Assembly: GCF_003018235.1 (NCBI RefSeq)
Contig: NZ_CP027437.1
Strand: one strand, 5' to 3'
DNA from: Escherichia coli
GTDB taxonomy: Bacteria; Pseudomonadota; Gammaproteobacteria; Enterobacterales; Enterobacteriaceae
DNA length: 64,000 bases
In this document: positions 39,584-52,167 of the stretch, in pieces
Position numbering within the stretch: position 1 is the first letter of the stretch
Layout of the letters: each line of letters opens with the position of its first letter
Notes under the pieces: generated by a model
What the model was told of the DNA's origin: nothing
What the model saw: only the letters and a program-made list of their open reading frames with translations
The model's database searches: none
Position numbers and translations under genes: made by a program

Positions 39584-41110
39584 TCAAAAATAAACCTCAC
39601 CATCAACCATATATTTGAGAGTACTTATCGCCTGCCGGGCGGATATTGTTTTCATTAAAGGATAGTGTTTAAAAACAATGCCATTCATAAAATAGATATC
39701 ACAGGTTTTATTATCTGTATTGATTATGATTTTTTCGAATGTTTTATAGGCAAGTGTACGACATAGCTCTCGCCCATTTTTACTGGTTAAGTCAATAGCA
39801 TGAAAATCACCAAGTGAGCTCACCGCTTTACTCTTCAAAGTTTTTAATGATACAGAAGCCCTTCGTAATTCCTTATCTAATACTCTGATTTTTTCTGCTA
39901 TAGCGGTAACTTCAGGCGCAACAGATAATGCAGCAATTAAATTATTAATTTTCATATGGAGCTCAATAATTCTCAACTCTAAAGTTTCATTAGCATCTTT
40001 CTTGTTTTCAACTGGTTGGATTTTACTACAATTAAAAAGCAACTCATTAATGATATTATAATCAACCAAATCTCTCTTTATTGATGGCCTGCCACATCGA
40101 TGCAGTCTTCTCATCGGACAAACATAATAGCCATGCAAACTTCCAGATACCGCATGAACAATCATGGTATTACCACAAGCCTCGCACTTCATAACTGTTC
40201 GAAGTAGATTTATCAACATAGGATTTTTGCTACTATTGCTAATACCAAAAGGTGCCAACCGAATTTCCTGCACAGCGTAAAACAAATCATCTGATATGAC
40301 TCTGGGATAATAGCCAGCGATTTCACTTATTCCTTTACCTCTTGCACGATATGAAGGTACGCATATACCTATCAGAGCTTTATTCGCTAATAATTTTTCA
40401 ATTACAGAAGGCCCCCATGCACTTTCTTTTCCTGAGAAATTCTTTACAGCATGATCATTTAAATACTTGGCTATTGCATTCAATGAGCGCCTTTCCATCC
40501 TGAGTTTAAAAATTAGCTCAATAGTTTTCACCCTGTCGGGGTCTGGAACAAAAGCCGTTCTTTTGTCATCTAAGGAGAGCCATCTCGGACAAGACGCCGT
40601 CATAATCGTACCTGATTCCAGTGCATCCTGCCGTTTTTTCTTCCATGATAATTTAACCCGACTTGACTTTATCTCGCTTTCTTCATTTGCCCTTTGTGCT
40701 ATAAGTATGGCTTTTATTAATGAATATGGCTCATTCAAAGAGTCAATATTATAGACTGTATTGTCGCAAAGAGTTATAACATCAATACCGTGATTCAAAA
40801 TCAATTTCAGACGTTCAATCGCTTCACCGACTTTTTCTCTTGAAAGTCTGTCCAGACTTTCAACTAACAATGTAGTTCCTGGCAATATATAACCATGCTC
40901 TATAGCATCTAAAAATTCCGAAAAAGCTCCTGATTGTGCATGCTTTCCTTTGAATGCACTTAATCCTAAATCTTCATATGTTATGGTATCAAGATAATAA
41001 TCACTATTTACCTTTAACCATTCAGCAATAAGTCTTCTCTGTCGGTTTAATGAGTCGCCAGACATCTGACCTGGTGATGAAAATCGCATATATGCTATGG
41101 CTTTTTTCAT
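39584..41110 (-). CDS. ybcK: Large serine recombinase (YbcK-like, 508 aa)
   Basis: N-terminal resolvase catalytic region (AIAYMRFSSPGQ…SLDRLSR) and C-terminal Cys-rich zinc ribbon; size equals DLP12 YbcK. Confidence 0.8.
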   Translation of the reverse strand: MKKAIAYMRFSSPGQMSGDSLNRQRRLIAEWLKVNSDYYLDTITYEDLGLSAFKGKHAQSGAFSEFLDAIEHGYILPGTTLLVESLDRLSREKVGEAIERLKLILNHGIDVITLCDNTVYNIDSLNEPYSLIKAILIAQRANEESEIKSSRVKLSWKKKRQDALESGTIMTASCPRWLSLDDKRTAFVPDPDRVKTIELIFKLRMERRSLNAIAKYLNDHAVKNFSGKESAWGPSVIEKLLANKALIGICVPSYRARGKGISEIAGYYPRVISDDLFYAVQEIRLAPFGISNSSKNPMLINLLRTVMKCEACGNTMIVHAVSGSLHGYYVCPMRRLHRCGRPSIKRDLVDYNIINELLFNCSKIQPVENKKDANETLELRIIELHMKINNLIAALSVAPEVTAIAEKIRVLDKELRRASVSLKTLKSKAVSSLGDFHAIDLTSKNGRELCRTLAYKTFEKIIINTDNKTCDIYFMNGIVFKHYPLMKTISARQAISTLKYMVDGEVYF

Positions 41111-41364
41111 GGTGACACCTGCTAACGTATGCTTTTATAAACCTTAGTGGCGAGATATAATTTTTGTTTAATTTTTATTTAAAAAGACAATTAAGGTCAC
41201 ATTATCTTGAATATACAACAATAATCGTATTGCAATTTTCTTACGCCATAATCTTGAAAGCACAAAAGAATACATAAAAAATAAAGACATTAACAAAAAG
41301 CATAAAACGAGGCTCATATAAATATAAGAGCCTCCATATTTTAGTCGTTTAGAAACAAATTATT

Positions 41365-41697
41365 TTAATGTGGTGTGCTTCGTGACAATAAATTAATAAC
41401 CAACACACCGGCACAAATCAACATCATGCCTATAATGGCTGGCAGGTCCAGCCGTTGGCCGAAAAATCCCCATGACAGTAAGCTAATCAGGACAATACCG
41501 ACTCCTGACCAGATAGCATAAGCAATCCCTGTAGGAATATAAGCCAGCGTCTGAGCTAATAACCAGAATGATGCACAATAACAAATAATTGTACCAACAG
41601 ATGGCCATAACCGTGTAAAACCTTCTGAAAACTTCATTAAGGTTGTACCAATGACCTCTGCAAGTATTGCACCACCAAGATAAATATAAGGATTCAT
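41365..41697 (-). CDS. emrE: SMR-family multidrug efflux protein EmrE
   Basis: 110-aa four-TM protein starting MNPYIYLGGAILAEVIGTTLMK; matches EmrE. Confidence 0.9.
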   Translation of the reverse strand: MNPYIYLGGAILAEVIGTTLMKFSEGFTRLWPSVGTIICYCASFWLLAQTLAYIPTGIAYAIWSGVGIVLISLLSWGFFGQRLDLPAIIGMMLICAGVLVINLLSRSTPH

Positions 41698-41764
41698 AGC
41701 ATATTCTTTCCTGTTCAAACTGGAGAGAATTGTACTACAGTTTGAACTCAACTCACCTGTTTCA

Positions 41765-42067
41765 TCATTGTGTACCCATTGATGTTCTTTTATATACCCT
41801 CAATACCCGTTTCATCGCGGCACTCTGGCGACACTCCTTAAAAATCAGATTCGTGCTCACCTTTCCTTCCCGTTCTTCTCTGGTAGCGAACCGGTAATAC
41901 ACCGTTCGCCAGACCTTACCATCAACGACCAGGATTCCTGCCCGCGCCATTTTAGCCGCAGCCTGATTTATGCTGGTTACGGTTGCGCCTGTTACCGCGG
42001 CAACGTCCTGTGCACAGAAGCTCTTATGCGTCCCCAGGTAATGAATAATTGCCTCTTTGCCCGTCAT
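41765..42067 (-). CDS. Ren-like protein
   Basis: 100-aa ORF immediately downstream of P, the position of lambda ren. Confidence 0.5.
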   Translation of the reverse strand: MTGKEAIIHYLGTHKSFCAQDVAAVTGATVTSINQAAAKMARAGILVVDGKVWRTVYYRFATREEREGKVSTNLIFKECRQSAAMKRVLRVYKRTSMGTQ

Positions 42068-42765
42068 ACACTTGCTCCTTTCAGTCCGAACTTAGCTTTG
42101 ATTTCTGCGATCTTCGCCAGAGCCTGTGCACGATTTAGAGGTCTACCGCCCATGACAGGAAGTTGTTTTACTGGTTCAGGTATCGCCTCACCACGGTTAA
42201 TTCGCGCGGTCATACAGGACAGTTCATCGGCAGCCTTGCGCCGTAATTCCGCGTCAGTCAACGCATTGGCCCGCATGTTCTGATACAGGTTGGTAACCAG
42301 CCAGTAGTGCGCGTTTGATTTCCACGGATAAGACTCTGCATCCGGATACAGACCACGCTTCCGGCAATACTCGTAAACCATATCAACCAGCTCGCTGACG
42401 TTTGGCAGCCCGGCGGTAACGGATGCTTCTTCCCGGCACCATGCAACAAACTGCCCGGGTGATGGCAGAAATGGTCTATTCTGCCGACGGGCAACACGCA
42501 TTCCGGCGCTCACCTGTTCCATCGTGGTGATCCCGTTTTCCCGGAAAGCCAGAACCCACTGGCGGCGGATTTCGTTCAGTTCGTTCTGGTCACGATTAGC
42601 CAGGCTCGCCGGGAAAGTTGCCAGTAACTGGCTGAATACACCGTTGATTATCTGCGCTACCTGCTGTACCTGCGGCTTTTCGTCGTACTGTTCCGGCATG
42701 TTGTTGGCGATCCGACGCATCTGCTCACGGTCAAAGTTAATCATCTGTGCGGCGATGTTTTTCAT
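42064..42765 (-). CDS. Replication protein P (DnaB helicase loader, lambda P-like)
   Basis: 233-aa ORF following O; length and sequence consistent with lambda P. Confidence 0.8.
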   Translation of the reverse strand: MKNIAAQMINFDREQMRRIANNMPEQYDEKPQVQQVAQIINGVFSQLLATFPASLANRDQNELNEIRRQWVLAFRENGITTMEQVSAGMRVARRQNRPFLPSPGQFVAWCREEASVTAGLPNVSELVDMVYEYCRKRGLYPDAESYPWKSNAHYWLVTNLYQNMRANALTDAELRRKAADELSCMTARINRGEAIPEPVKQLPVMGGRPLNRAQALAKIAEIKAKFGLKGASV

Positions 42766-43781
42766 AGATCCACCCCGTAAATCCAGTCTGTGTTTGTCAG
42801 GTCGAGTTTTGGTTTGCTAGCTGTCACGCCTGCCTGTTGCTTGTTACGGTTGATTTCGAGTTGGGTCCACTTGTCGCGGAGTTTGGCCGGACTTAGCACG
42901 TTACCGGACCAGAAGTTGTCCTGGCATGCCCAGCGGAACAGCACGCACATGTCGCGGTGGTTACGTCCGTCACGTTCACGCATCAGGCGGATATCGTTAG
43001 CCCACCCTGCAAAATTCGGTTTTCTGGCTGATGGCGCGATGGTCTTCACCATGTCAAACATCCACTCTGCGGCGGTCAGGTCTTCTGCTGTCCCCCACTT
43101 GCTGCCGCTCTGAATTGCAGCATCCGGTTTCACCACAGGAAGATCGTTTTCTGGTTGGTCAGAGGATTCGCCAGAATTCTCGGACGAAAAAGGTTTTATA
43201 TTGTCTTTTGTTAGTTTGTCTTTTGTGTTTACCTGATTCGGGTAAACGCCTTTACCTGATTTGGGTAAACTTTTTTTACCTGATTCAGGTAAATTTACCT
43301 CTTTCAGGTAAACTTTATTTTTCTTACCTGATTCGGGTAATGTTGACCATTCACTGACCACATTATTAATGCCGGTATTCCGCCCGCTCTGAATAAAAAT
43401 CCCACGCTTTACCAGAACACTTTTTGCAGCAGAACACTTGTGCGGCAATATCCCGGTTAATTCGGAAAGTTGCTCGTTGCTAACCCAATCCAGTTTTTTA
43501 TTAAAGCCATATGTTTTGCGCATGACAGCCAGAAAGACCAGAAGCTGGTGCTGTGTTAATCCGGCCAGCATCACAGCTTCCAGCAACTCATTTGCAATGC
43601 GCGTATAACCATCATCGAGATCTGCCACGCGCGGCTCCTTTTGTGCCGCATCCGGCACTGGAAAATTGAATATCTCAGCAGTGTTTGCCATAATTCCTCC
43701 CGCAATGAGTGTGTTACGATTTGCACCTGAAAGTCGGTTCTGTTCCAGCAGACCGGCTTTCGCCATTTCTGAACCTGTCAT
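42762..43781 (-). CDS. Replication initiator O, with ori iterons embedded in the coding sequence
   Basis: 339-aa ORF; the internal repeated peptide LPESGKK corresponds to the DNA iterons. Confidence 0.8.
   Translation of the reverse strand: MTGSEMAKAGLLEQNRLSGANRNTLIAGGIMANTAEIFNFPVPDAAQKEPRVADLDDGYTRIANELLEAVMLAGLTQHQLLVFLAVMRKTYGFNKKLDWVSNEQLSELTGILPHKCSAAKSVLVKRGIFIQSGRNTGINNVVSEWSTLPESGKKNKVYLKEVNLPESGKKSLPKSGKGVYPNQVNTKDKLTKDNIKPFSSENSGESSDQPENDLPVVKPDAAIQSGSKWGTAEDLTAAEWMFDMVKTIAPSARKPNFAGWANDIRLMRERDGRNHRDMCVLFRWACQDNFWSGNVLSPAKLRDKWTQLEINRNKQQAGVTASKPKLDLTNTDWIYGVDL
43229..43341. repeat. Replication origin iterons: five ~19 bp direct repeats (TTACCTGATTCGGGTAAAC-like, each internally palindromic)
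   Basis: Copies at about 43229, 43251, 43277, 43295 and 43323, inside the O gene as in lambda ori. Confidence 0.8.
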
Positions 43782-44317
43782 ATTGCCCCCAGCATGGTGG
43801 TGACCATTGCCATCAGTGGACCAGCCAGATCCGGGTCCACTCGAAACATCGACACAATGCCTTCACTCATCTCCTTCAGTTTCTGGTGGCGTGGTGCGTT
43901 GAGAATGACCGCCTGCTTTGCCTCACTGAGTTCCTTTTCCATTTCAGCCAGCCGAGCCATGAAGCTATCCTGCTCAACTAGGTAACCGCGATATTCCAGC
44001 GGTAGTACCGCCAGAATTGCCGGGGTCAGTTCACGCACGTTATTTCTGTATTTTTCAGAATCGAATTTGTTATCGAGGAAGCGGAACAGCTTCTGGCGTG
44101 CACGGCTGACATCATCAGGGAAATCGATGGTGCCGCCGCCCTGCTCCCGATACTCATTCACAATGAGTGCGGCAACGACATCCTGATTATCTACAGCCGA
44201 CCAGGCGCGGACGGCATCACGGATTTTTTCGTGGCCTGGAGCTTGTTTTGTTTGAGAACGATTTATCACCGCAGTCGGGCTAAATCCGCTAGTCTGTTGG
44301 TATGTAAGTGGTTGCAT
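43778..44317 (-). CDS. CII-position regulatory protein (YdaT-like family suspected)
   Basis: 179-aa ORF directly downstream of the cro-like gene and upstream of O. Confidence 0.45.
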   Translation of the reverse strand: MQPLTYQQTSGFSPTAVINRSQTKQAPGHEKIRDAVRAWSAVDNQDVVAALIVNEYREQGGGTIDFPDDVSRARQKLFRFLDNKFDSEKYRNNVRELTPAILAVLPLEYRGYLVEQDSFMARLAEMEKELSEAKQAVILNAPRHQKLKEMSEGIVSMFRVDPDLAGPLMAMVTTMLGAI

Positions 44318-44386
44318 AATTGACTCCTTTAGTTTGAATTGACTGTTAAGTTGATTGCTTATTGTTAAAGAGCGTGAAATGGAAAT

Positions 44387-44617
44387 TTAAGCTGCGTTCT
44401 TTTCAGTGTGTGGAAACAACTTCGGAAGATCCGGGCGAATCTGGTATGCCTTCACTACTCCACCAGTAGCCGTAACAATGCTGCCGACATGTTCAGGGGA
44501 TACCTTTGCTTTGTTGTGAAGCCACTTATAGACGGCCTGCTGTGAAACTTCGCAGGCAGCGCCTAGTTTCTTTTGTGAACCAACGATATTGATCGCTGTT
44601 TTGATGGCTGGGTTCAT
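44387..44617 (-). CDS. Cro-like HTH DNA-binding protein (YdaS-like)
   Basis: 76-aa ORF divergent from cI with HTH (QKKLGAACEVSQQAVYKW). Confidence 0.7.
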   Translation of the reverse strand: MNPAIKTAINIVGSQKKLGAACEVSQQAVYKWLHNKAKVSPEHVGSIVTATGGVVKAYQIRPDLPKLFPHTEKNAA

Positions 44618-44721
44618 AACAACCTCCGTGGTTAATTTGAATCAAGATTAAAACCATGGTTGTTTTTAGTCAACAACCATTTTCGTTTGATGAAATAAAA
44701 CCTTGGTTGTACATTTGGACT
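44618..44721. promoter_or_regulatory. Divergent immunity promoter/operator region (OR-like) with three related operator sites
   Basis: AAAACCATGGTTGTTTT (about 44650-44666), CAACAACCATTTT (about 44671-44683), AAAACCTTGGTTGTACA (about 44697-44713) share the CAACCA/TGGTTG half-site. Confidence 0.6.
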
Positions 44722-45411
44722 ATGAAAACAACACTCTCAGAAAGACTTAAAGAAGCCAGATTAGCGCGAGGCCTTACACAAAAGGCGCTTGGGGATTTGG
44801 TCGGGGTTAGCCAAGCAGCTATTCAGAAAATCGAAACAGGGAAAGCTAACCAAACAACTAAAATCGTGGAGATCGCGAACGCTTTGGGTGTGCGCGCAGA
44901 ATGGTTATCTTCTGGCGTTGGAAATATGTCAGACAGTACAGTGCAACCAATACAAACAACTGTCAGCCATTCCAAATACTTTAAGATTGACGTTCTTGAT
45001 ATCGAAGTGAGTGCCGGGCCGGGAGTCATCAACCGTGAGTTTGTAGAAGTTCTACGCTCGGTTGAGTACTCGTTTGACGATGCTCGTCACATGTTCGATG
45101 GTAGGAAGGCAGAAAATATCCGCATCATTAACGTACGCGGTGACAGCATGTCAGGAACGATTGAACCTGGTGATCTTCTATTCGTTGATATCACGGTTAA
45201 ATCTTTCGACGGTGATGGTATCTATGCGTTTCTGTACGACGACACAGCCCATGTAAAGCGCCTGCAAATGATGAAGGATAAGCTGCTGGTTATCTCTGAT
45301 AACAAAAGCTACTCACCGTGGGACCCGATCGAGAAAGATGAGATGAACCGGGTATTTATCTTCGGGAAAGTTATTGGGAGCATGCCGCAGACGTATAGGA
45401 AGCATGGATAG
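44722..45411 (+). CDS. CI-like repressor (N-terminal HTH, C-terminal LexA/S24 autopeptidase domain)
   Basis: HTH (LTQKALGDLVGVSQAAIQKIETG) and S24 catalytic region (GDSMSG…, …HVKRL); start at MKTTLSERL chosen over the upstream in-frame TTG/ATG. Confidence 0.85.
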   Translation: MKTTLSERLKEARLARGLTQKALGDLVGVSQAAIQKIETGKANQTTKIVEIANALGVRAEWLSSGVGNMSDSTVQPIQTTVSHSKYFKIDVLDIEVSAGPGVINREFVEVLRSVEYSFDDARHMFDGRKAENIRIINVRGDSMSGTIEPGDLLFVDITVKSFDGDGIYAFLYDDTAHVKRLQMMKDKLLVISDNKSYSPWDPIEKDEMNRVFIFGKVIGSMPQTYRKHG

Positions 45412-45479
45412 TACCAATTAAAAATTATCAACCGGGCATTGTGCTCATTCAGTAAAACAACTTAATTATTCATTTTAGA

Positions 45480-46553
45480 ATGGAGAACTTAATGGATACT
45501 TTAAAATATGAGAAATTCTCTGATTTTGATCACAATGACCCATTTTTTGACTCTTTAAAAAAAGATTATAAAGAGTTTCCTCTTTGGTTAGAAAAAAAAG
45601 CCAGAGAAGGAGAATCAGCTTATGTGCTCTATGATGACAAGCATAAAATCGAAGGTTTTATGTATCTAAAAGAAAATGATGATGCAAATGACATTAATCC
45701 AGCGCTCCCACCAGGACGTCATCTAAAGATAGGAACATTCAAATTTGAATCTAAAGGCACCCTTCGCGGACAACGATTTCTAAAAAAAGCGTTTGACCAT
45801 GCATTTTCATCAAAATCTGATGATATTTATGTTACTGTTTTCGACAAACACGTCCATCTAATAAAACTTTTCCAAACGTACGGATTTTACATTCATGGTG
45901 AAAAAGAAACACATAACGGGAAAGAGTTTGTATATGCGAGGTCTTTGCATGAGCCTTATGGTGATATTTTATTAGATTACCCTCGAATAATGACATCAAG
46001 GGCCAACAAATATTTACTGGCGATTTATCCCGAATATCACACTAGACTATTCCCTGATTCAAAACTTGTAAATGAATCACCAGATATTGTCAAAGATATA
46101 TCCCATGCTAACAGCATTCATAAAATTTACATATGTGGAATGCGTTCTGTGATGGGAATGAAAAGAGGAGATATCATTGTCATCTATAGAACCGGAGACA
46201 AAAAAGGGCCAGCTCGCTATCGTTCTGTAGCCAGTACATTATGTGTAGTTGAGAGCGTAAAAAATATTTCTGAATTTTTAAGCGAAGATAGTTTTGTAGA
46301 CTATTGTATTCGTTTTAGCGTATTTTCTGAAGATGAACTCAGAAAAATCTATAAAGAACGTCGATACCCTTTCATTATAAGATTCACATACAATCTGTCT
46401 TTGCCAAAGAGACCCAATCGTGCTATTTTAATAGATCATGTGGGGCTAAATGGTTCGCGTGCATTCCGATGGAGTCACTTTAAACTCACAAATGAGCAGT
46501 TCTTAAAGATCATCGAGTTAGGCAAGATAAATGAAAGTTTTATTATCCATTAA
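45480..46553 (+). CDS. Hypothetical two-domain protein: N-terminal GNAT-like acyltransferase fold, C-terminal PUA/ASCH/EVE-like domain (357 aa)
   Basis: Pattern resembling GNAT motifs (…IGTFKFESKGTLRGQRFLKKAFDHAF…LIKLFQTYGFYIHG…); C-terminal half has a KRGDIIVIYRTGD segment reminiscent of PUA-like beta barrels; strongly AT-rich. Confidence 0.5.
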   Translation: MENLMDTLKYEKFSDFDHNDPFFDSLKKDYKEFPLWLEKKAREGESAYVLYDDKHKIEGFMYLKENDDANDINPALPPGRHLKIGTFKFESKGTLRGQRFLKKAFDHAFSSKSDDIYVTVFDKHVHLIKLFQTYGFYIHGEKETHNGKEFVYARSLHEPYGDILLDYPRIMTSRANKYLLAIYPEYHTRLFPDSKLVNESPDIVKDISHANSIHKIYICGMRSVMGMKRGDIIVIYRTGDKKGPARYRSVASTLCVVESVKNISEFLSEDSFVDYCIRFSVFSEDELRKIYKERRYPFIIRFTYNLSLPKRPNRAILIDHVGLNGSRAFRWSHFKLTNEQFLKIIELGKINESFIIH

Positions 46554-46908
46554 GCCTGAGTTTGCAGAAAAAATATTGAACGGAACAAAGCGGTTCGAGT
46601 TTCGTAAAGGTATATTCAAAAATCCGCAAATTAGCACCGTTGTTATTTATGCCACGATGCCATTAGGTAAAGTTGTTGGTCAATTCCGTATTGAATCAAT
46701 ACTAAGTGACGAACCGGAATCTCTTTGGAAAAAGACGGAAAAACACGCAGGTATTTCTAAGCAATTTTATGACTCATATTATTCAGGTAGAGAAAAGGCC
46801 TACGCAATAAAAATTGGTGAAGTGGAAAGATATAAAGAACCAATTCCTATCTCTGCTCTAGGTAGTAATATTAAGCCACCACAATCATATCTTTACCTAC
46901 CTGCGTAA
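46531..46908 (+). CDS. ASCH-domain protein (125 aa)
   Basis: MKVLLSIKPEFAEKILNGTKRFEFRK… is the characteristic ASCH N-terminal beta strand/helix signature; overlaps the preceding gene by 23 nt. Confidence 0.6.
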   Translation: MKVLLSIKPEFAEKILNGTKRFEFRKGIFKNPQISTVVIYATMPLGKVVGQFRIESILSDEPESLWKKTEKHAGISKQFYDSYYSGREKAYAIKIGEVERYKEPIPISALGSNIKPPQSYLYLPA

Positions 46909-47039
46909 GAATCCCGGCCACCGTGCCGGGTTTTCTTTTATCCCCTCCCCTCATCACATATACCGTTCAAAAAACCACCACAATCTCCCTTCAGTTATCG
47001 CTATGCGATGCAAGTCACAAAATAAACCCATCCTAAATA

Positions 47040-47130
47040 CAACCAGTTACATCTAAAACAACCAATAAAACAACTTTTGTTGTTGACGATAAAACAACTA
47101 TAGTTTTAAATAAATTCATCGCAACAACAC
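47040..47130. promoter_or_regulatory. OL/PL-like operator-promoter region
   Basis: Repeated AAAACAAC(C) operator-like motifs including the inverted repeat AACAACTTTTGTTGTT and a TTGACG -35-like hexamer; same half-site as the OR region. Confidence 0.5.
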
Positions 47131-47184
47131 AACGATACGGCAACCACCTGATTCACCGTTGCGATGACCGCTTAGATCCGCAGC

Positions 47185-47595
47185 TTGAATTTCAGCAGGC
47201 TCCGGGGAGTGCGAGGGGTGAAGCGGACGCGTGAACGTCGGTGTGACCAGCTGAAATCAACTCAACACTTCATACCTCAGTCGCTTCAACGAGGCGGCTT
47301 AGTTATGACAACCGGCGGCCATCCACCGCCTGAATACGCGCAGAAGTCTCCATATGTTCAGCAGCCCAGCTTACGGGCAGGAGTTTTTATGGTTCATCAA
47401 CATTATGGAACGCAGACCGTTAATCGAGGTGCGGTCATGCCAGGAATGCTGGTCAAACACAAAGATGGTACCTGGACTGCATCAGCTAATTTACGCGGAC
47501 GGCTTTATCTGCATCGCGGCATCGAGCGCACTTATACCCGTGATTTGCTCGTGGAAGTTTTTCTCGACGGACGCGGTAACGGCCTGAATCACTAA
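47185..47595 (+). CDS. Hypothetical early-left protein with N-terminal arginine-rich motif (possible N/Nun-like antiterminator); start uncertain
   Basis: N-terminus [15 protein letters not shown] resembles an ARM; first ORF downstream of the PL-like region. Confidence 0.3.
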
Positions 47596-47670
47596 TCCCC
47601 TTTCCTGTTTTCCTAATCAGCCTGGCATTTCGCGGGCGATATTTTCACAGCCATTTTCAGGAGGTCAGCC

Positions 47671-47967
47671 ATGAACGCTTATTACATTCAGGATCGTCTT
47701 GAGGCTCAGAGCTGGGCGCGTCACTACCAGCAGATCGCCCGTGAAGAGAAAGAGGCAGAACTGGCAGACGACATGGAAAAAGGCCTGCCCCAGCACCTGT
47801 TTGAATCGCTATGCATCGATCATTTGCAACGCCACGGGGCCAGCAAAAAAGCCATTACCCGTGCGTTTGATGACGATGTTGAGTTTCAGGAGCGCATGGC
47901 AGAACACATCCAGTACATGGTTGAAACCATTGCTCACCACCAGGTTGATATTGATTCAGAGGTATAA
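47671..47967 (+). CDS. gam: Gam (RecBCD inhibitor), short form
   Basis: 98-aa ORF starting [21 protein letters not shown]…, near-identical to lambda GamS; AGGAGG ribosome-binding site upstream. Confidence 0.9.
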
Positions 47968-47972
47968 AACGG

Positions 47973-48758
47973 ATGAGTACAGCACTCGCAACGCTGGCAG
48001 GGAAGCTGGCTGAACGTGTCGGCATGGATTCTGTCGACCCACAGGAACTGATCACCACTCTTCGCCAGACGGCATTTAAAGGTGATGCCAGCGATGCGCA
48101 GTTCATCGCATTACTGATCGTTGCCAACCAGTACGGCCTTAATCCATGGACGAAAGAAATTTACGCCTTTCCTGATAAGCAGAATGGCATCGTTCCGGTG
48201 GTGGGCGTTGATGGCTGGTCCCGCATCATCAATGAAAACCAGCAGTTTGATGGCATGGACTTTGAGCAGGACAACGAATCCTGTACATGCCGGATTTACC
48301 GCAAGGACCGCAATCATCCGATCTGCGTTACCGAGTGGATGGATGAATGCCGCCGCGAACCATTCAAAACCCGCGAAGGCAGAGAAATTACGGGGCCGTG
48401 GCAGTCGCATCCCAAACGGATGTTACGGCATAAAGCCATGATTCAGTGTGCCCGTCTGGCCTTCGGATTTGCTGGTATCTATGACAAGGATGAAGCCGAG
48501 CGCATTGTCGAAAATACTGCATACACTGCAGAACGTCAGCCGGAACGCGACATCACTCCGGTTAACGATGAAACCATGCAGGAGATTAACACTCTGCTGA
48601 TCGCCCTGGATAAAACATGGGATGACGACTTATTGCCGCTCTGTTCCCAGATATTTCGCCGCGACATTCGTGCATCGTCAGAACTGACACAGGCCGAAGC
48701 AGTGAAAGCTCTTGGATTCCTGAAACAGAAAGCCACTGAGCAGAAGGTGGCAGCATGA
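47973..48758 (+). CDS. bet: Bet single-strand annealing recombinase (RecT family)
   Basis: 261-aa ORF near-identical to lambda Bet as recalled. Confidence 0.93.
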
Positions 48759-49435
48759 CACCGTACATTATCCTGCAGCGTACCGGGATCGACGTGAGAG
48801 CTGTCGAACAGGGGGATGATGCATGGCACAAATTACGGCTCGGCGTCATCACCGCTTCAGAAGTTCACAACGTGATAGCAAAGCCCCGCTCAGGAAAGAA
48901 GTGGCCTGACATGAAAATGTCCTACTTCCACACCCTGCTGGCTGAGGTTTGCACCGGTGTGGCTCCGGAAGTTAATGCTAAGGCGCTGGCCTGGGGAAAA
49001 CAGTACGAGAACGACGCCAGAACCCTGTTTGAATTCACTTCCGGCGTGAATGTTACTGAATCCCCGATCATCTATCGCGACGAAAGTATGCGCACCGCCT
49101 GCTCTCCAGATGGTTTATGCAGTGACGGCAACGGCCTTGAACTGAAATGCCCGTTTACCTCCCGGGATTTCATGAAATTCCGGCTCGGTGGTTTTGAGGC
49201 AATAAAATCGGCTTACATGGCCCAGGTGCAGTACAGCATGTGGGTGACGCGAAAAGATGCCTGGTACTTTGCCAACTATGACCCGCGCATGAAGCGTGAA
49301 GGCCTGCATTATGTCGTGATTGAGCGGGATGAAAAGTACATAGCGAGTTTTGACGAGATGGTGCCGGAGTTCATCGAAAAAATGGACGAGGCACTGGCTG
49401 AAATTGGTTTTGTATTTGGGGAGCAATGGCGATGA
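48755..49435 (+). CDS. exo: Exo 5'-3' exonuclease (lambda Exo)
   Basis: 226-aa ORF near-identical to lambda Exo as recalled; overlaps bet stop. Confidence 0.93.
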
Positions 49436-50713: not shown

Positions 50714-51056
50714 GGCCTGTCAGTTTCTTAAGATATCCAGACCAACCGCCACCAACTGGATACGAACAGGCCGCCTACAGGCAACACGTAAAGATCCAAC
50801 CAAGTCAAAATCTCCTTACCTCACAACACGGCAAGCCTGCATTGCGGCGCTTCAGTCTCCGCTGCATACTGTCCAGGTGAGCGCGGGTGATGGCATAACA
50901 GAGGAAAGAAAATGTCACTCTTCCGCAGAAATGAAATATGGTATGCCTCGTATTCGCTCCCGGGCGGGAAACGAATTAAGGAATCTCTTGGCACAAAGGA
51001 CAAGCGGCAAGCTCAGGAGTTGCACGACAAGCGAAAAGCAGAACTCTGGCGAGTAG
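50685..51056 (+). CDS. xis: Putative excisionase (Xis), overlapping int start; C-terminal extent uncertain
   Basis: HTH-like N-terminus ([26 protein letters not shown]) immediately upstream of and overlapping int. Confidence 0.5.
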
Positions 51057-52075
51057 AAAAGCTAGGGGATTTACCTGATGTCACTTTTGAAGAGGCCTGC
51101 CTAAGATGGCTTGAGGAAAAAGCTGATAAAAAATCTCTCGATTCAGATAAAAGCCGGATTGAGTTCTGGCTTGAACATTTTGAGGGTATAAGGCTTAAAG
51201 ATATCTCGGAGGCAAAGATTTACTCTGCTGTAAGCAGAATGCATAACAGAAAGACGAAAGAAATATGGAAACAGAAAGTTCAGGCCGCCATCAGGAAAGG
51301 TAAAGAACCGCCTGTTTATGAACCAAAGCCAGTATCAACTCAGACAAAGGCAAAGCATCTTGCCATGATAAAGGCCATTCTCCGTGCTGCAGAACGCGAC
51401 TGGAAGTGGCTGGAAAAAGCGCCTGTCATCAAGATACCAGCGGTCAGAAACAAGCGAGTCAGATGGCTGGAAAAGGAGGAAGCAAAACGCCTTATTGATG
51501 AGTGCCCCGAACCACTGAAATCTGTCGTCAAGTTTGCGCTGGCAACTGGTCTGAGAAAGTCGAACATCATAAATCTGGAATGGCAACAAATCGACATGCA
51601 GCGACGAGTTGCCTGGGTGAATCCAGAAGAGAGCAAATCAAACCGCGCCATTGGTGTGGCGCTGAACGATACCGCCTGTAAAGTGTTGCGTGATCAAATA
51701 GGCAAGCATCACAAATGGGTGTTTGTACATACCAAGGCGGCTAAGCGAGCAGATGGAACATCAACGCCTGCGGTCAGGAAGATGCGCATCGACAGCAAGA
51801 CATCATGGCTATCAGCTTGTCGTCGTGCAGGAATTGAAGATTTCCGTTTCCATGACCTCAGACACACCTGGGCAAGCTGGCTGATTCAGTCAGGCGTCCC
51901 ATTATCAGTGCTTCAGGAAATGGGCGGATGGGAGTCCATAGAAATGGTTCGTAGGTATGCTCACCTTGCGCCTAATCATTTGACAGAGCATGCGAGGAAA
52001 ATAGACGACATTTTTGGTGATAATGTCCCAAATATGTCCCACTCTGGAATTATGGAGGATATAAAGAAGGCGTAA
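50912..52075 (+). CDS. int: Tyrosine integrase (lambda Int family; DLP12 IntD-like)
   Basis: 387-aa ORF with C-terminal catalytic signature (…[15 protein letters not shown]…VRRYAHL) adjacent to argU. Confidence 0.92.
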
Positions 52076-52090
52076 CTGATTGAATTGTAA

Positions 52091-52167
52091 TGGCGCGCCC
52101 TGCAGGATTCGAACCTGCGGCCCACGACTTAGAAGGTCGTTGCTCTATCCAACTGAGCTAAGGGCGC
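52091..52167 (-). tRNA. argU: tRNA-Arg (anticodon UCU)
   Basis: Reverse complement reads GCGCCCTTAGCTCAGTTGGATAGAGCAACGACCTTCTAAGTCGTGGGCCGCAGGTTCGAATCCTGCAGGGCGCGCCA: cloverleaf with TCT anticodon and CCA end. Confidence 0.93.

Follow-up and report, generated by a model that had tools for sequence, protein, structure and literature searches.

The question raised by this locus is whether the gam gene of a lambdoid prophage of Escherichia coli can give the long form of the Gam protein (GamL) or the short form (GamS) alone, and, if the latter, whether a reading frame has been lost. The DNA analysed, referred to herein as the window, is a stretch of 64,000 nucleotides from contig NZ_CP027437.1 (NCBI RefSeq assembly GCF_003018235.1), numbered from its first letter. 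The initial annotation claimed that the sequence upstream of the gam ATG resembles the N-terminal extension of lambda GamL at the DNA level but is out of frame with this ATG, that the extension frame is disrupted, and that only the 98-aa short form can be made; a pairwise alignment with lambda gam was proposed as the check. The gene and its translation signal are located as follows.

47671-47967, + strand: gam, encoding a 98-aa host-nuclease (RecBCD) inhibitor, the equivalent of lambda GamS (ORF list, PF06064, PHROG 259).
47659-47664, + strand: Shine-Dalgarno sequence AGGAGG, 6 nt upstream of the gam ATG (47671).

The predicted 98-aa product was compared with family profiles and solved structures. 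The Pfam profile PF06064 (Gam) gave 214.3 bits against a cut-off of 25, with residues 1-98 aligned to positions 1-98 of the 98-position profile; PHROG 259, likewise a profile of 98 positions, matched with E=3.6e-60, and the PDB entries 5mbv_A and 2uuz_A matched over all 98 residues (E=1.1e-60). These two solved Gam structures, 5MBV and 2UUZ, represent the 98/99-aa short form. With the full-length profile match, the structure match and the operon position all in agreement, the predicted product is a member of the Gam host-nuclease inhibitor family. It is identical to residues 41-138 of lambda Gam, corresponding to GamS, at 95 of the 98 positions (97%), and the gene shares with that of lambda GamS the length of the product, the start context (Shine-Dalgarno plus ATGAACGCT...) and the place directly upstream of bet and exo. 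The differences are three conservative replacements (L22I, S61A and R81Q), one more T in the spacer upstream of the gene, and AGGAGG in place of AGGAGT, the Shine-Dalgarno sequence of lambda and most of its relatives, from which it differs by one substitution. The GamS dimer acts by DNA mimicry and blocks RecBCD's DNA-binding site sterically (PMC5218532), and, on the basis of the 97% identity to the Gam present in the RecBCD-Gam cryo-EM complex (PMC5218532), we infer that the product of this gene binds and inhibits RecBCD. As judged from its sequence, the gene is an intact and ordinary lambda-type gam, which should work like the well-studied GamS.

Pairwise alignment of positions 47540-47990 with the lambda genome (J02459) showed that the similarity to lambda starts abruptly at the stop codon of the upstream gene kil (TCACTAA; TAA at 47593-47595) and goes on through gam at about 98%, while no lambda homology was found in this alignment on the 5' side of the kil stop codon. 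Between the kil stop and the gam ATG, the window carries four substitutions and a 1-base insertion relative to lambda; the inserted base is an extra T (GCCATTTTC in the window against GCTA-TTTC in lambda), and the spacer is 75 nt in length compared with 74 in lambda. The elements of this region are listed below.

47389-47595, + strand: kil, a cell-division inhibitor gene of the phi80/KilR type, 68 aa (PHROG 294), not homologous to lambda kil.
47580-47696, + strand: remnant of the lambda GamL frame, lying between TAA at 47577-47579 and TGA at 47697-47699 and +1 relative to gam (translation).
47596-47670, + strand: kil-gam spacer of 75 nt, read as non-coding; DNA counterpart of lambda GamL codons ~16-40, off by one base.
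47614-47616, + strand: TAA that closes the gam frame 18 codons before the ATG (translation).
47654-47657, + strand: run of four T (three in lambda), which by its one base of extra length puts the GamL frame out of step (alignment).

The type of kil turned out to be of importance for the long form. The kil gene of the window matches PHROG 294, 'Kil protein for bacterial septation inhibition', with E=2.5e-38; the identical 68-aa product in E. coli O104:H4 was named 'phage encoded cell division inhibitor protein' by PGAP, and a kil of this type is entered as 'phage phi80 Kil homolog' in the record of phage Perceval. The ATG of lambda GamL is located 46 nt inside lambda kil, the first ~15 GamL codons being within that gene, and of the 40-codon extension only the last ~25 codons have a DNA counterpart in the window. 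Because the kil herein is a different, non-homologous allele, the lambda GamL start codon is missing. The remnant frame at 47580-47696 contains no ATG, GTG or TTG upon translation, and the ORF list includes no ORF in that frame. The gam frame itself is interrupted 5' of the ATG by two stops, the kil TAA at 47593-47595, which is the first in-frame stop on the 5' side of gam and coincides with the start of lambda similarity, and the TAA at 47614-47616; between the latter and the ATG at 47671, neither ATG, GTG nor TTG was found in this frame by translation or in the ORF list.

With the in-frame GamL start absent and the frame shifted, only the 98-aa protein can be made. The long form is thus ruled out twice and independently, once by the absence of the GamL start codon along with the different kil, and once by the frame shift due to the extra T. 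Compared with lambda GamL (138-aa ORF, J02459 / NC_001416), the window shares the DNA for about the last 25 extension codons, with four substitutions and one indel, but lacks the in-frame start that in lambda precedes the GamS ATG by 40 codons; stops close the frame, which is displaced by +1, and the lambda-equivalent frame ends at the TGA at 47697-47699 instead of being continuous from the extension into gam, indicating that the gene of the window is not a GamL. The initial annotation was therefore right on the resemblance, which extends over the 75 bases before the ATG and covers the last ~25 codons only, on the lack of register with the ATG, for which the proposed alignment identified the extra T at 47654-47657 as a single 1-base insertion, and on the 98-aa form with its AGGAGG site as the sole possible product, given the stops at 47593 and 47614 and the absence of a start after the second stop. 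We consider the spacer to be non-coding intercistronic DNA, which would resemble lambda only through a segment common to lambdoid phages.

The term "disrupted" used for the extension frame implies in addition that something was lost, and this point was examined with two sets of gam loci from IMG/VR. The first set consists of the 80 loci closest to the Gam of the window, and is biased towards identical Gam and partly overlaps the second; the second set is unranked, being collected with the exact first 26 bases of gam, and gave 120 stretches, of which 118 were usable. The frequencies of loci given here are taken from the unranked set only, and the percentages are rough since IMG/VR is redundant for E. 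coli isolates. No in-frame extension was present in 86 of the 118 loci (73%), including 60 with the kil type of the window and the 4-T allele and 21 with lambda-type kil and the 4-T allele; loci with phi80-type kil and the 3-T allele are likewise without the extension. The 40-codon ORF of lambda is kept in 31 of the 118 (26%), and one locus carries an extension of 55 codons. When both overlapping sets were taken together (192 loci), the kil stop and the gam ATG were 73, 74, 75, 76 or 77 nt apart, most often 75 nt, and the single-base steps in length fall in two runs, a C-run just 3' of the stop and the T-run that precedes the Shine-Dalgarno sequence. The exact 75-nt haplotype of the window is the commonest of 46, being found in 29 of the 192 loci. 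Several loci with 100% identical Gam carry unrelated DNA upstream, up to the Shine-Dalgarno sequence. Such length variation in steps other than multiples of three, together with mosaicism whose junctions lie at the Shine-Dalgarno sequence or the kil stop, is as expected of an intercistronic spacer and not of a coding extension.

The same state was found beyond the close relatives. In a homologue search against 5.8 billion proteins, the Gam homologues listed at 72-90% identity (Salmonella, Citrobacter, Raoultella and E. albertii) are all 97-100 aa in length, and calls of 138 aa occur, among the homologues listed, solely for alleles with an identity of 97% or more to the query. In the loci retrieved from two divergent lineages, the DNA 5' of gam is unrelated and has in-frame stops at a distance of 9-93 nt; in Salmonella, it is unrelated to the lambda extension except for the Shine-Dalgarno region, and in one lineage of E. 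coli, in which the end of a RecE-like gene overlaps gam, an in-frame stop lies 9 nt upstream. The short-only state is therefore the commonest configuration among related phages and not a lesion: the frame is indeed out of register with gam, as the word "disrupted" says, but the loss that it implies is not in accord with a state held by the majority of sampled loci and shown exclusively by the divergent homologues.

As a separate observation, a gam of 82% identity occurs on hundreds of contigs (loci L207-L209; E. coli, GCA_032238995.1 and others) directly behind a gene for a RecE-like Exonuc_VIII (more than 684 aa), with an overlap of 23 nt; bet (RecT family) and a YqaJ/lambda-exo gene come next, a gene order that indicates an operon with both a RecE-type and a lambda-type exonuclease.

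Short-form gam is also well represented in annotated genomes. At least 80% of the kil+spacer+gam query was found in 2157 of 5426 complete E. coli genomes (~40%), and part of it in 3224 of the 5426. In the finished genome of O104:H4 FDAARGOS_349, kil and spacer are base-for-base identical to those of the window and Gam is identical, the RefSeq entry being WP_000995433.1, a 98-aa 'host-nuclease inhibitor Gam family protein'. The Shiga-toxin phages (933W, VT1-Sakai and Stx2 phage 86) and the prophages of E. coli O104:H4 and O55:H7 share the 4-T spacer allele and the 98-aa Gam; the Stx phages, however, carry lambda-type kil and thus retain the GamL ATG out of frame, whereas the window, with its phi80/KilR-type kil, has no such ATG. 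For Stx2-converting phage 86 (NC_008464, locus L205, 562-714), a 50-codon 'gam alternate', which begins at the lambda GamL ATG inside kil and stops out of frame within gam, is annotated beside the 98-aa 'gam'. Since this annotation describes the out-of-frame ORF, the frame break is already on public record, and the short-form arrangement is already known and annotated as such in thousands of genomes.

A rival explanation holds that GamL is a genuine, distinct isoform of the lambda lineage, so that the allele of the window represents its loss or non-acquisition with a phenotype, such as the potency of RecBCD inhibition or the host range, and the homopolymer serves as an on/off toggle. Gam has been described as two isoforms, both active from plasmids, and GamL was slightly better than GamS in some K. 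pneumoniae strains (PMC5218532; PMC11610958), so that the extension may have some meaning in lineages like that of lambda. The 40-codon frame is open in about a quarter of the sampled loci, and a slight synonymous excess is detectable in it: among 11 distinct variants from open-frame loci, the ratio of synonymous to non-synonymous changes in the non-overlapping part of the extension is 6:5 when read in the GamL frame, compared with 1:10 and 3:8 for the two alternative frames, a skew that is not significant after allowing for transition bias, and the positive control, gamS, gave 54:112 and is itself only mildly skewed. This excess gives a weak hint of coding constraint. Against this explanation, the extension is absent from most sampled loci and from all the divergent homologues, the family profiles and the solved RecBCD complex need only 98 aa, and indels that are not multiples of three have been tolerated repeatedly in the spacer. 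The first 15 codons, moreover, overlap kil in another frame, and their conservation is therefore explained by kil. Primary evidence for the production of GamL in infection was not found in the accessible literature, which contains secondary statements only. On balance we regard this explanation as improbable. The same low likelihood is given to its more specific form, that the 40-codon extension is a young, lineage-restricted isoform switched on and off by single-base changes in the two spacer homopolymers and by exchange of kil, with the window in the 'off' state and some effect on the antagonism of RecBCD (or SbcCD/Kiwa).

An error of sequencing or assembly in the homopolymer, with the open GamL frame of lambda as the true sequence, was rejected as having a negligible chance: single-base homopolymer errors are common in some assemblies, and odd 171-aa Kil-Gam fusions are seen in low-count, assembly-derived clusters, but the identical haplotype recurs as the commonest one, the 4-T allele is present in most of the independent loci sampled, the finished O104:H4 genome agrees with the window, and even with three Ts there would be no GamL since its start codon is missing with this kil. 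Equally far-fetched, and also rejected, is a longer Gam made by recoding, either by stop read-through from kil or by a programmed frameshift in the spacer, for although kil and gam share a frame with 78 nt from stop to ATG, and one locus with both stops mutated has a 122-codon extension, read-through would have to pass two consecutive TAA (47593 and 47614), neither a known slippery heptamer nor a stimulatory structure could be recognized in the spacer, in which the sole hairpin is weak, and the Kil-Gam fusion variant is a singleton.

Fused frames as such were also met with. In locus L004 (IMG/VR UViG_2713896771_000008), a singleton, both intervening stops are mutated to give the 122-codon in-frame Kil-Gam extension, and in three small clusters of 171-aa proteins (P0002, P0009 and P0010) the reading frame of lambda-type kil shifts at the end of the gene and continues into that of GamL. 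Kil-Gam fusions are rare, and the majority, found in run-level assemblies, may reflect errors in homopolymers.

The spacer was also inspected for RNA structure, as another possible cause of the conservation of this DNA, and one element was detected by the terminator scan.

47620-47647, + strand: weak terminator-like hairpin, GCCTGGCATTTCGCGGGC, with a 5-bp stem including one G-U pair, followed by GATATTTTCA.

The G+C-rich stem-loop spans 47620-47637, and its RNA fold has an energy of -9.5 kcal/mol (z = -1.9; 9 of 200 shuffles were as good), the lambda equivalent giving -11.7 kcal/mol (z = -2.6). At the hairpin, the spacer haplotypes include changes that keep a pair (C/T opposite G) as well as changes that break one, with no clear covariation. 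The accessible lambda records carry no terminator annotation at the spacer, a literature search for tL2 or a terminator here gave nothing relevant, and an Rfam scan of 44300-48100 returned sub-threshold chance matches only. We take the lambda tL2 terminator cluster to lie between bet and ral, and the spacer hairpin is a possible counterpart.

Downstream of gam, the operon continues with the two recombination genes, identified by annotation of near-identical loci.

47973-48758, + strand: bet (Red beta, 261 aa), the next operon gene after gam.
48755-49435, + strand: exo (lambda exonuclease, 226 aa).

The order kil-gam-bet-exo, with intD downstream, corresponds to the Red region of the lambdoid early-left operon. 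The site of integration of the prophage in the E. coli chromosome is argU/DLP12, as indicated by intD at 50912-52075 and tRNA-Arg(tct) at 52091-52167 (- strand); beyond the tRNA are the host fim/sfm genes and folD, and on the other side of the prophage are replication genes, ren, emrE and ybcK. The last three of these (40000-44400 in the window) are likewise carried by DLP12, the cryptic prophage of K-12, of which the prophage of the window is a fuller relative, with kil-gam-bet-exo still intact.

A separate feature of the prophage is a two-gene cassette on the + strand, 45480-46553 (357 aa) and 46531-46908 (125 aa, ASCH domain), placed between a CI-like S24 repressor gene (44656-45411) and kil, i.e. 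at the position of lambda rexAB. The cassette matches the PADLOC candidate defence system PDC-M11 (A, E=2e-133; B, E=7e-52) as well as PHROGs of unknown function, and a strong terminator-like hairpin is located on its 3' side (46913-46930). The slot is empty in the O104:H4 relative and filled in O55:H7 CB9615. No N-like gene was found between the repressor and cargo genes and kil (~46931-47388). Within this interval, a candidate pL-type promoter, TTGACG-17 nt-TTAAAT at ~47083-47111, was recognized by eye but not called by the automatic scan; on both sides of it are AACAAC/GTTGTT inverted repeats, possibly operators. If this promoter is real, gam is the second gene of a transcript with a leader of ~270 nt.

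Taken as a whole, the locus is very probably an ordinary lambdoid prophage gam, encoding the 98-aa equivalent of GamS behind a non-coding spacer, in the commonest configuration of such genes. According to this explanation, a pL-type promoter upstream would drive the expression of gam, the strong Shine-Dalgarno sequence of the gene itself, at 6-nt spacing, would serve for translation into the 98-aa protein, and the ensuing inhibition of RecBCD would protect linear phage DNA and allow recombination by Bet and Exo. The 138-aa GamL ORF of lambda would then rest on two lineage-specific accidents, a kil of lambda type that provides the ATG and a spacer length that keeps the frame, neither of which holds here because the kil allele differs and the spacer has one more T. 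For a standard Gam, the finding carries little biological weight; for annotation and cloning it is a caution that the 138-aa GamL of the lambda reference, open in about one in four sampled loci, is not conserved in the family, and that the 98-aa form should be taken as the functional unit of the Gam family.
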